Source: Shigella phage Henu11. Taken from it: a stretch of DNA of 64,000 nucleotides. The stretch is taken from sequence record OM953433; one strand, 5' to 3'. The position numbers and the translations under genes were made by a program. Positions 31,333 to 31,460 of this stretch are shown in pieces (within the stretch, counting starts at the first letter, position 1; each line of letters opens with the position of its first letter). The notes under the pieces were generated by a model. It did not search any database, was not told the DNA's origin, and was given only the letters and a program-made list of their open reading frames with translations.

Positions 31333-31460
31333 CAGAAGACCGTTTACAGCAAACAATAAACAATCTATTTCTCTGATAAAGAAAAGGCGAAGGTTCGAAT
31401 CCTTCACACGTTACGGCGTGTTGGTGTAATGGAAGCACTTAAGATAAATACGGTCTGGTA
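31333..31460 (+). ncRNA. structured repeat element d enclosing a tRNA-like module
   Basis: arms agaccgt/acggtct; interior has anticodon-arm-like hairpin tttct-ctgataa-agaaa, T-arm gaagg-ttcgaat-ccttc, hairpin acacg/cgtgt, D-arm-like gtg-taatggaag-cac. Confidence 0.35.

Follow-up and report, generated by a model that had tools for sequence, protein, structure and literature searches.

Within the tRNA gene array of Shigella phage Henu11 we found an element that is, with a probability which we put at roughly 0.7, a phage Y-RNA-like small RNA of the YrlA (tRNA-mimic) class with a different protein-binding module. The DNA analysed, referred to below as the window, is a stretch of 64,000 nt from record OM953433, and all coordinates are window positions; the element spans 31330–31461 on the + strand, from outer helix to outer helix. 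It is a conserved, covarying, permuted tRNA-like RNA structure and the fourth copy in a four-copy family with a shared closing module (the copies are hereafter called carriers), and the strand-specific co-location of such RNAs with a Ro60-like protein family recurs over diverse phages. The element is neither a decoding tRNA nor a simple pseudogene.

YrlA RNAs have been defined as Y RNAs with paired ends, whose interior holds V, T, variable but paired acceptor-like (AS) and D stem-loops (PMC4201824). The Henu11 element is closed by an outer helix, UUAC (31330–31333) with GUAA (31458–31461), and by inner closing arms, AGACCGU (31337–31343) with ACGGUCU (31450–31456), so that the 5′ side of the closing module (31330–31352) reads UUAC, loop AGA, AGACCGU and single-stranded UUACAGCAA, and its 3′ side (31450–31461) ACGGUCU, G and GUAA. 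Inside, an anticodon-arm-like hairpin, UUUCU-CUGAUAA-AGAAA (31368–31384), occupies the position of the YrlA V stem-loop and is followed by a T-arm, GAAGG-UUCGAAU-CCUUC (31389–31405), a capped acceptor-like hairpin, ACACGU-UACG-GCGUGU (31406–31421), and U8-G9 with a D-arm, GUGU-AAUGGAA-GCAC, that contains A14, G18, G19 and A21 (31422–31438, the D-arm at 31424–31438), all on the + strand. Numbered as a tRNA, the element is a full cloverleaf with a circular permutation at 26/27 and a loop that closes its acceptor end. The minimum-free-energy (MFE) fold gives exactly this arrangement of arms, and the closing arms, anticodon-arm-like hairpin, T-arm, acceptor strands and D-arm listed in the initial annotation are all where it had placed them. 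That annotation had offered a permuted tRNA gene, a Y-RNA-like tRNA mimic and a broken tRNA-Ile pseudogene as interpretations; we favour the second, as the V/T/AS/D order is the YrlA architecture and a Ro60-fold gene is encoded 1 kb upstream in the same orientation.

The structure is maintained by compensatory change in relatives, as judged from an alignment (A2) of 22 distinct Ounavirinae orthologues. The proposed structure was paired in 97.2% of cells, versus 39–52% when the 3′ partners were slid by 1–3 columns. The acceptor hairpin was 99.4% paired, with three pairs changed on both sides over three clades, and exists in three versions: ACACGU/GCGUGU (the window, Sf and SUSP), ACCCUUC/GAAGGGU (Mordin, Michonne, Moogle and HP1) and ACUCGGC/GUCGAGU (Felixounavirus). 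The T-arm (GAAGG-UUCGAWU-CCUUC) and the D-arm (GUGU-AAUGGNA-GCAC) are near-invariant between clades which are ~80% identical elsewhere, the sole exceptions being one sequence with a broken T-stem pair and another with a G-to-A change in the D-stem. The anticodon-like loop, on the other hand, is not conserved: it reads CUGAUAA, CUGGUAA, CUAUAAA, CCGGUAA or, with 6 nt, CGGUAA, its place being taken by another hairpin altogether in the Mordin clade. The likeness of this loop to that of tRNA-Ile(GAU), pointed out in the initial annotation, thus holds for the window phage and its nearest kin and is no general feature of the element. A CCA is found in some clades only; in the Mordin clade the junction ACCCUUC-G-CCA-AACA-GAAGGGU comprises a 7-bp stem, a discriminator and CCA, while the window clade lacks CCA and has a 6-bp acceptor hairpin with a UACG tetraloop.

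A linear reading of the same sequence does not survive this comparison. ARAGORN, which reports 26 tRNA genes on the + strand at 30455–35854, called neither the element nor any transfer-messenger RNA (tmRNA) in the window, and the T-arm of the element is the sole canonical T-arm in the array outside an ARAGORN tRNA. At gathering, the sole Rfam hit was a borderline one to the tRNA model (RF00005), which scores 31339–31413 at 30.4 bits, against a gathering threshold of 29, by pairing ACCGUUU with ACACGUU as acceptor. In the same alignment this pairing was kept in only 54% of cells and did not covary, and the D-arm is missing in linear order, in agreement with the earlier remark that no normal 5′ acceptor or D-arm precedes the anticodon-like arm. 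Because the linear acceptor pairing fails and the permuted pairing covaries, the permuted reading is right and the linear tRNA or pseudogene reading wrong. The proposal of a tRNA-Ile pseudogene broken by insertion falls with it, as compensatory change has preserved the permuted pairing and not the linear one; moreover, an intact tRNA at this position, which would have signalled a simple pseudogene, was absent from every relative fetched.

Could the element instead be a decaying, functionless relic of a tandem tRNA gene pair, in which the first gene is represented by its 3′ half and the second by its 5′ half? Its 3′ half is closest to the phage's own intact tRNA-Ile(GAU), located elsewhere in the array (32338–32413), with an identical T-arm; the Mordin junction, 3′ strand-G-CCA-AACA-5′ strand, resembles the boundary of two tRNA genes; and a caution has been given that dimeric tRNAs mimic YrlA (PMC4201824), an artefact of this kind having been detected by us at one locus (L110). 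Nevertheless, the acceptor strands have remained complementary through three complete sequence replacements, covariation which largely refutes this explanation, and the T- and D-arms are near-invariant where the surrounding sequence has diverged. Two real tRNAs would need outer halves which are missing here, the acceptor does not hold as a linear pairing, and the same design recurs independently in distant phages, all of which leave a tandem remnant very improbable. Compared with its closest kin (for example L020, 359–499), the window carries substitutions at 31375 (CUGGUAA to CUGAUAA) and 31399 (UUCGAUU to UUCGAAU), which are absent from the nearest relatives and each of which raises the likeness to the phage's own tRNA-Ile(GAU); they may reflect micro gene conversion or coincidence.

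We give equally little credence to a genuine permuted or split tRNA gene, in which a cut by RNase P in the acceptor loop, trimming of the 3′ end and addition of CCA would produce a decoding tRNA made of two pieces that can be aminoacylated. The four arms, U8, A14, G18G19, A21 and the T-loop are all present, some relatives have a 7–8-bp acceptor stem followed by N-CCA, and YrlA of Mycobacterium smegmatis, with its AS of 7 bp, is both cleaved by RNase P and provided with CCA in vivo (PMC4201824). However, the anticodon loop varies freely and has 6 nt or C33 in many Felixounavirus sequences, the acceptor of the window clade is a capped 6-bp hairpin without CCA, and an intact tRNA-Ile(GAU) is already encoded in the array. 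No bulge-helix-bulge (BHB) was seen in the element, and neither a BHB nor a splicing endonuclease is expected in these hosts. The suggestion of a circularly permuted tRNA gene is therefore correct as a description of topology and fails as a description of a decoding tRNA, given a loop which is not conserved, the 6-nt loops or C33, the closed acceptor and the lack of CCA in most sequences.

The closing module is shared with three further copies in the array, which lack the tRNA-like head. Four copies each of its 5′ motif AGAAGACCnnnUACAGCAA and its 3′ motif GGUCUGGU are present in the array, with practically none outside it; for the 5′ motif, 0.75 matches would be expected in the array and 4, exact or nearly so, were observed. 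Copy 1 (30624–30698), between tRNA-Glu and tRNA-Met, reads UGAC / AGA / AGACCAA / UUACAGCAA on its 5′ side and UUGGUCU / G / GUCA on its 3′ side and has no tRNA-like insert; copy 2 (30787–30857), between tRNA-Met and tRNA-Asn, reads UUAC / AGA / AGGCCGU / UUACAGCAA and ACGGUCU / G / GUAA; and copy 3 (31241–31322) reads GGAGC / AGA / AGACCAA / AUACAGCAA and UUGGUCU / G / GUUCC, all three on the + strand. All four copies thus follow one layout. First comes an outer helix (UGAC/GUCA, UUAC/GUAA or GGAGC/GUUCC), next the internal loop AGA/G, which is asymmetric and invariant, then a 7-bp inner helix (AGACCAA/UUGGUCU or AGACCGU/ACGGUCU), single-stranded (U/A)UACAGCAA and, finally, a variable middle. 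Among 78 distinct orthologous or paralogous copies, the inner (H1, 7 bp) and outer (H2, 4–5 bp) helices stay paired by compensatory change, as in UUAC/GUAA to UUGC/GCAA, and the AGA/G loop is invariant. All wobble pairs are G-U on the + strand only, and the + strand is therefore the transcribed one.

Three other readings of the closing module were considered and dropped. The TTTACA/TTGACA hexamers at carrier 5′ ends are not promoters, as no −10 box is conserved, the hexamer belongs to a helix that covaries, and the scan gives just as many hits as shuffling leads one to expect. On inspection only, the AGA/G loop is not a kink-turn, its non-bulged strand lacking the positions for G-A pairs. The idea that the closing stem resembles the Ro-binding helix of metazoans (GGUCCGA) was abandoned, since GGUC/GACC lies on the opposite strand and is not kept in Yersinia phage P778.

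The proposed protein partner is encoded directly upstream of the array, on the same strand, by an open reading frame (ORF) of 471 aa (28874–30289, +), copy 4 beginning 1041 nt past its stop codon. This gene has its own promoter-like site, and two further such sites fall between the gene and tRNA-Pro. The protein contains DUF2828 and DUF7788, is labelled 'RNA-binding protein' in PHROGs and is 83% identical to its orthologue gp130 of phage Bas63. An AlphaFold model built with 34 homologues was confident (pLDDT 87, pTM 0.88), and the top 11 matches to it found by Foldseek in the PDB are all Ro60/TROVE proteins aligned over the full length, among them phage phiLo Ro60, human and Xenopus Ro60 and Deinococcus Rsr. 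As modelled, the protein has the Ro60 fold, with a HEAT-repeat (TROVE-type) ring and a C-terminal von Willebrand factor A (vWA) domain bearing a MIDAS (metal ion-dependent adhesion site), the arrangement expected of Ro60; the MIDAS residues DxSxS...T...D are invariant in it and its homologues. Bas63 gp130 was itself described as resembling Ro60 in structure and as able to overcome the Ppl defence, in a preprint whose authors also raised the speculation of Y RNAs lying among the tRNA genes (bioRxiv 10.1101/2024.10.10.617714). A gene for a 123-aa DUF5681 protein (28426–28797) precedes the Ro60-like gene; the pair is kept in two more distant loci (L075 and L076), and the DUF5681 protein may be a conserved partner.

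Exact-pattern searches of IMG/VR with the T- and D-arms of the window or with the carrier 5′ end returned Ounavirinae and likely chance singletons only, and more distant relatives were then reached through the protein. The order DUF5681 gene, Ro60-like gene and tRNA array with carriers is kept at 62% protein identity (L076) and at 51% (Yersinia phage vB_YenM_P778, L075), the carriers of P778 having diverged with compensated helices (GGACUGU/ACAGUCC and GGAUUC/GAAUCC). In a 143-kb contig at 49% protein identity (L078), the gene and the first tRNA are 690 nt apart, and this interval accommodates five carriers in tandem, three of the five with T, 7–8-bp AS and D modules. Of these three, the first shows this architecture in the MFE fold (z −3.1) and the second does so for the most part (z −2.3); in the third, the T-arm, acceptor hairpin and closing stem appear in the centroid fold only and are not significant (z −0.54).

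The association was then quantified in 75 diverse IMG/VR loci that encode the protein family at 38–46% identity, using a crude carrier detector ('stem + NWCAGCAA') and a strict one for T + AS + D. On the gene strand, the first 1 kb downstream had a carrier density of 0.76 per kb and the 1 kb upstream one of 0.37 per kb, versus 0.06–0.12 per kb for the controls (gene strand elsewhere and opposite strand everywhere), which amounts to a strand-specific enrichment of WCAGCAA stem-loops by a factor of about 7 immediately downstream of the gene. Strict T + AS + D modules numbered 21 on the gene strand and 2 on the opposite strand (84 loci). Fifteen detections lay outside Ounavirinae; apart from the dimeric-tRNA artefact at L110, the remaining 14 sit inside WUWCAGCAA...C-UG carriers, several with N-CCA at the start of the AS loop. 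In the 690-nt gap of the P778 array, a sequence at ~9010–9150 combines a good acceptor stem (GCGGGUG/CACCUGC), a D-arm, a T-arm and a long internal insert and was missed by ARAGORN, and another isolated T-arm lies at ~9340–9390; a tRNA with an intron, or additional tRNA-like RNAs, may account for them. Locus L122 has a tmRNA gene (10715–11132, 88 bits) ~4 kb downstream of the Ro60-like gene on the same strand.

These data bear on two explanations which dispense with the Ro60-like protein. The four stem-loops could be cis-acting processing or spacer elements of the tRNA transcript (RNase E, RNase III or RNase P sites), with the head serving as a handle for RNase P or an exonuclease. They do lie between tRNAs and on the tRNA strand, the adjacent block has a 15-bp stem which resembles a processing helix, and N-CCA after a 7-bp acceptor stem, as in the Mordin clade and other relatives, is a good design for an RNase P substrate. 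Nevertheless, such RNAs directly follow the Ro60-like gene in many distant phages, even where no tRNA is adjacent, with the strand-specific enrichment given above; and the invariant loop with an 8-nt single-stranded motif in all paralogues looks like a protein recognition site and not like a nuclease spacer. We consider this explanation unlikely. Less likely still is a free-standing tRNA decoy which, with no part played by the Ro60-like protein, sequesters a tRNA-targeting nuclease of host defence or an enzyme that modifies tRNA. The element displays an intact anticodon-like arm and a tRNA elbow, and the literature links phage tRNA arrays to evasion of tRNA-targeting defences; the variable anticodon-like loop, however, speaks against a decoy for a specific anticodon nuclease, and a decoy leaves the three head-less paralogues and the co-location with the Ro60-like gene unexplained.

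For a Y-RNA-like role we envisage the following. The RNAs would be transcribed with the tRNA operon from the + strand, excised from the tRNA transcript and stable. Each is predicted to fold into a two-helix closing stem around the AGA/G loop, followed by single-stranded UACAGCAA, and copy 4 to present in addition a head of four permuted tRNA arms with a loop-capped acceptor. The shared module, that is, the AGA/G loop together with UACAGCAA, would be the binding site for the Ro60-fold protein encoded 0.3–1 kb upstream. By analogy with bacterial Ro60/Y RNA/polynucleotide phosphorylase (PNPase) complexes and with phiLo, the tRNA-like head would engage tRNA-recognising factors, or gate or tether the Ro60-like ring, and the downstream function may be RNA quality control or counter-defence.

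Several observations weigh against this assignment. The single-sequence fold z-score of the element is weak (−1.46) and falls short of significance on thermodynamic grounds alone, which leaves it to the comparison with relatives to carry the case. The Rfam YrlA model (RF02553, gathering threshold 69 bits) gave no match to the window copy even at E ≤ 10, and no related element reached the threshold, the L078 and L133 elements scoring 26–41 bits (40.9 and 25.8 for two in L078, 38.9 and 28.7 in L133). Copy 4 lacks the GNCGAAN0-1G motif that YrlA has near its 5′ end, its 5′ strand being UUACAGAAGACCGUUUACAGCAA, and has the invariant AGA/G internal loop and UACAGCAA in its place; a GGCGAAG string at 31386–31392, between the first hairpin and the T-arm, is not kept in relatives. 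The head is dispensable, as L076 has copies 1–3 and no tRNA-like copy, and one P778 carrier is a reduced version with the first hairpin and T-arm only. As to the 471-aa protein, its likeness to Ro60 is at the fold level only: Pfam matched DUF2828 and DUF7788 and not TROVE (PF05731), and phmmer and hmmsearch of the PDB found no Ro60. Finally, gp130 alone, expressed from a plasmid or from T7, counters Ppl without these RNAs (bioRxiv 10.1101/2024.10.10.617714), so anti-Ppl activity does not need them.

The element lies in a spacer of ~425–429 nt between tRNA-Asp (31107–31183) and tRNA-Lys (31609–31684). As 425 nt, this spacer is 99% identical in the Mooglevirus phages Citrobacter phage BSwM KMM2 and Shigella phages SFPB and Sf13-19, and it is kept at 80–93% identity across ~250 Felix-O1-like (Ounavirinae) genomes; folded as a whole (429 nt), it has a z-score of −4.7. 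No ORF is conserved over the element region on either strand. In public records these RNAs are unannotated or overlain by minus-strand coding sequences (CDSs) for hypothetical proteins, which cover the element and the next block (bas63_0137/0138, wV8 gp048 and Phi87_08; annotated at 2722–2996 of L079, Bas63 MZ501086, at 963–1220 of L003, wV8, and at 504–761 of L007, UAB_Phi87). We rejected a protein-coding reading, as this CDS of wV8, UAB_Phi87 and Bas63 falls into pieces of 49 and 32 aa in the window; because the frame is broken there, these annotations are probably spurious.

Directly 3′ of the element, a second structured block (31460–31608) has a perfect 15-bp long-range stem, AAUCAUCUUUGCAGU / ACUGCAAAGAUGAUU, which stops 1–4 nt short of tRNA-Lys. 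In Felixounavirus and L076 the interior of this block differs and a 19–20-bp stem is retained, with compensatory changes (from UUUGCAG/CUGCAAA to UUUGUAG/CUACAAA); a processing helix of the RNase III type is one possibility, a further non-coding RNA the other. Directly 3′ of tRNA-Asp (31189–31240) are two conserved hairpins, GAGGGC...GCCCCUC and CCUUAAAGAG...CUUUAAAGG, present in all aligned clades, with a similar pair in L076 and P778 and without a + strand T-run terminator. Further array spacers of 240–750 nt lie at 31842–32337, 32414–32689, 32767–33003, 33094–33342, 34253–34496 and 34927–35678, in the last of which Mordin annotates a 244-aa CDS.

Phage Ro60 homologues, Y-like RNAs in mycobacteriophages and phiLo, and the Ro60-likeness of the Felixounavirus protein were already known. 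New here are the RNAs themselves, of which we found no description in the searchable literature (DUF2828, permuted tRNA in phages, Felixounavirus ncRNA), and their putative protein-binding module, which is unlike that of all described Y RNAs; they fall outside Rfam curated thresholds. Y RNAs with tRNA-like heads have been known, and the same design is now seen in Felix-O1-like phages of E. coli, Salmonella and Shigella, which are tractable and widely used. The proposed partner protein has been tied to counter-defence (anti-Ppl), and where the preprint could only guess at RNAs there are now concrete candidates, four per genome, with a defined common module and one tRNA-mimic head. A large phage family of DUF proteins also proves to have such RNAs recurrently at its side. 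The binding code can now be tested directly, as can the part played by the tRNA-like head.

Among known systems, YrlA (Rfam RF02553; Salmonella, Mycobacterium and mycobacteriophages) is the closest in architecture. YrlA genes are found within ~4 kb of Ro60 on the same strand, often with a second Y RNA without the full head alongside (PMC4201824). Copy 4 has the same V/T/AS/D order inside a 5′–3′ closing stem, with paired ends, a T-arm followed by a D-arm with tRNA-invariant nucleotides and a covarying acceptor-like stem-loop, and it lies on the same strand as, and within a few kb of, a Ro60-fold gene, a proximity to be read with the caveat that the likeness of this gene is at the level of the fold. 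Copies 1–3 parallel YrlB as paralogues without the tRNA-like head, and the 7-bp stem with CCA of the Mordin clade recalls YrlA of M. smegmatis. Besides the missing 5′ motif, copy 4 differs in its first hairpin, whose distance of 4 nt from the T-stem is that of an anticodon arm and not of a variable arm, in its setting inside a 26-tRNA operon and in its proposed partner protein, which is of the DUF2828/DUF7788 and not the TROVE type.

Thermus phage phiLo likewise combines a phage Ro60-fold protein with adjacent small stem-bulge-stem RNAs, Yrl1 and Yrl2, but these lie upstream of the gene, contain a CGAA motif and have no reported T/AS/D head; RNA binding and PNPase recruitment have been demonstrated in phiLo (PMC12135203), whereas the Henu11 RNAs are predicted binders. 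Bas63, a Felixounavirus, has the gp130 orthologue at the same position upstream of its tRNA array; no RNA was identified in the preprint, and the present candidates lie in spacers and are not annotated tRNAs. With permuted tRNA genes of the Cyanidioschyzon merolae type and two-piece tmRNA the element shares a 3′ half encoded before the 5′ half and, in some relatives, CCA at the junction. Unlike them, it has no BHB or circularisation signal and no tag reading frame, its anticodon loop is not conserved, and its break is at 26/27 and not in the loop used by known permuted tRNAs.

In the head-less carriers (~55–75 nt), a 6–7-bp terminal stem starts with G, its 5′ strand runs straight into (U)UACAGCAA, the middle is variable and rich in A/U, and the 3′ strand closes with C-UG. 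Class I RNAs of Dictyostelium (RF01414) are defined by these four features too (PMC7919456). The hosts are unrelated, and Class I RNAs bind an RNA recognition motif (RRM) protein and are themselves reported to be unique to dictyostelids (PMC7919456). RF01414 scores head-less carriers, including those at 7534–7592 and 7619–7670 of L078, at 19–27 bits (19.2–26.8) against a gathering threshold of 41.5, with no match at gathering in the window or in 13 loci, and the resemblance may be chance or convergence. Pfam DUF2828 also covers eukaryotic proteins. It is conceivable, if improbable, that DUF2828-type Ro60-like proteins, of which phages have thousands of homologues, possess a Y RNA class of their own, with a terminal stem starting with G, WUWCAGCAA and a C-UG 3′ end, and that Class I RNAs are the Y-RNA-type partners of a TROVE-like protein. 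Were this so, the motif would be the recognition code of a kingdom-spanning ribonucleoprotein family.

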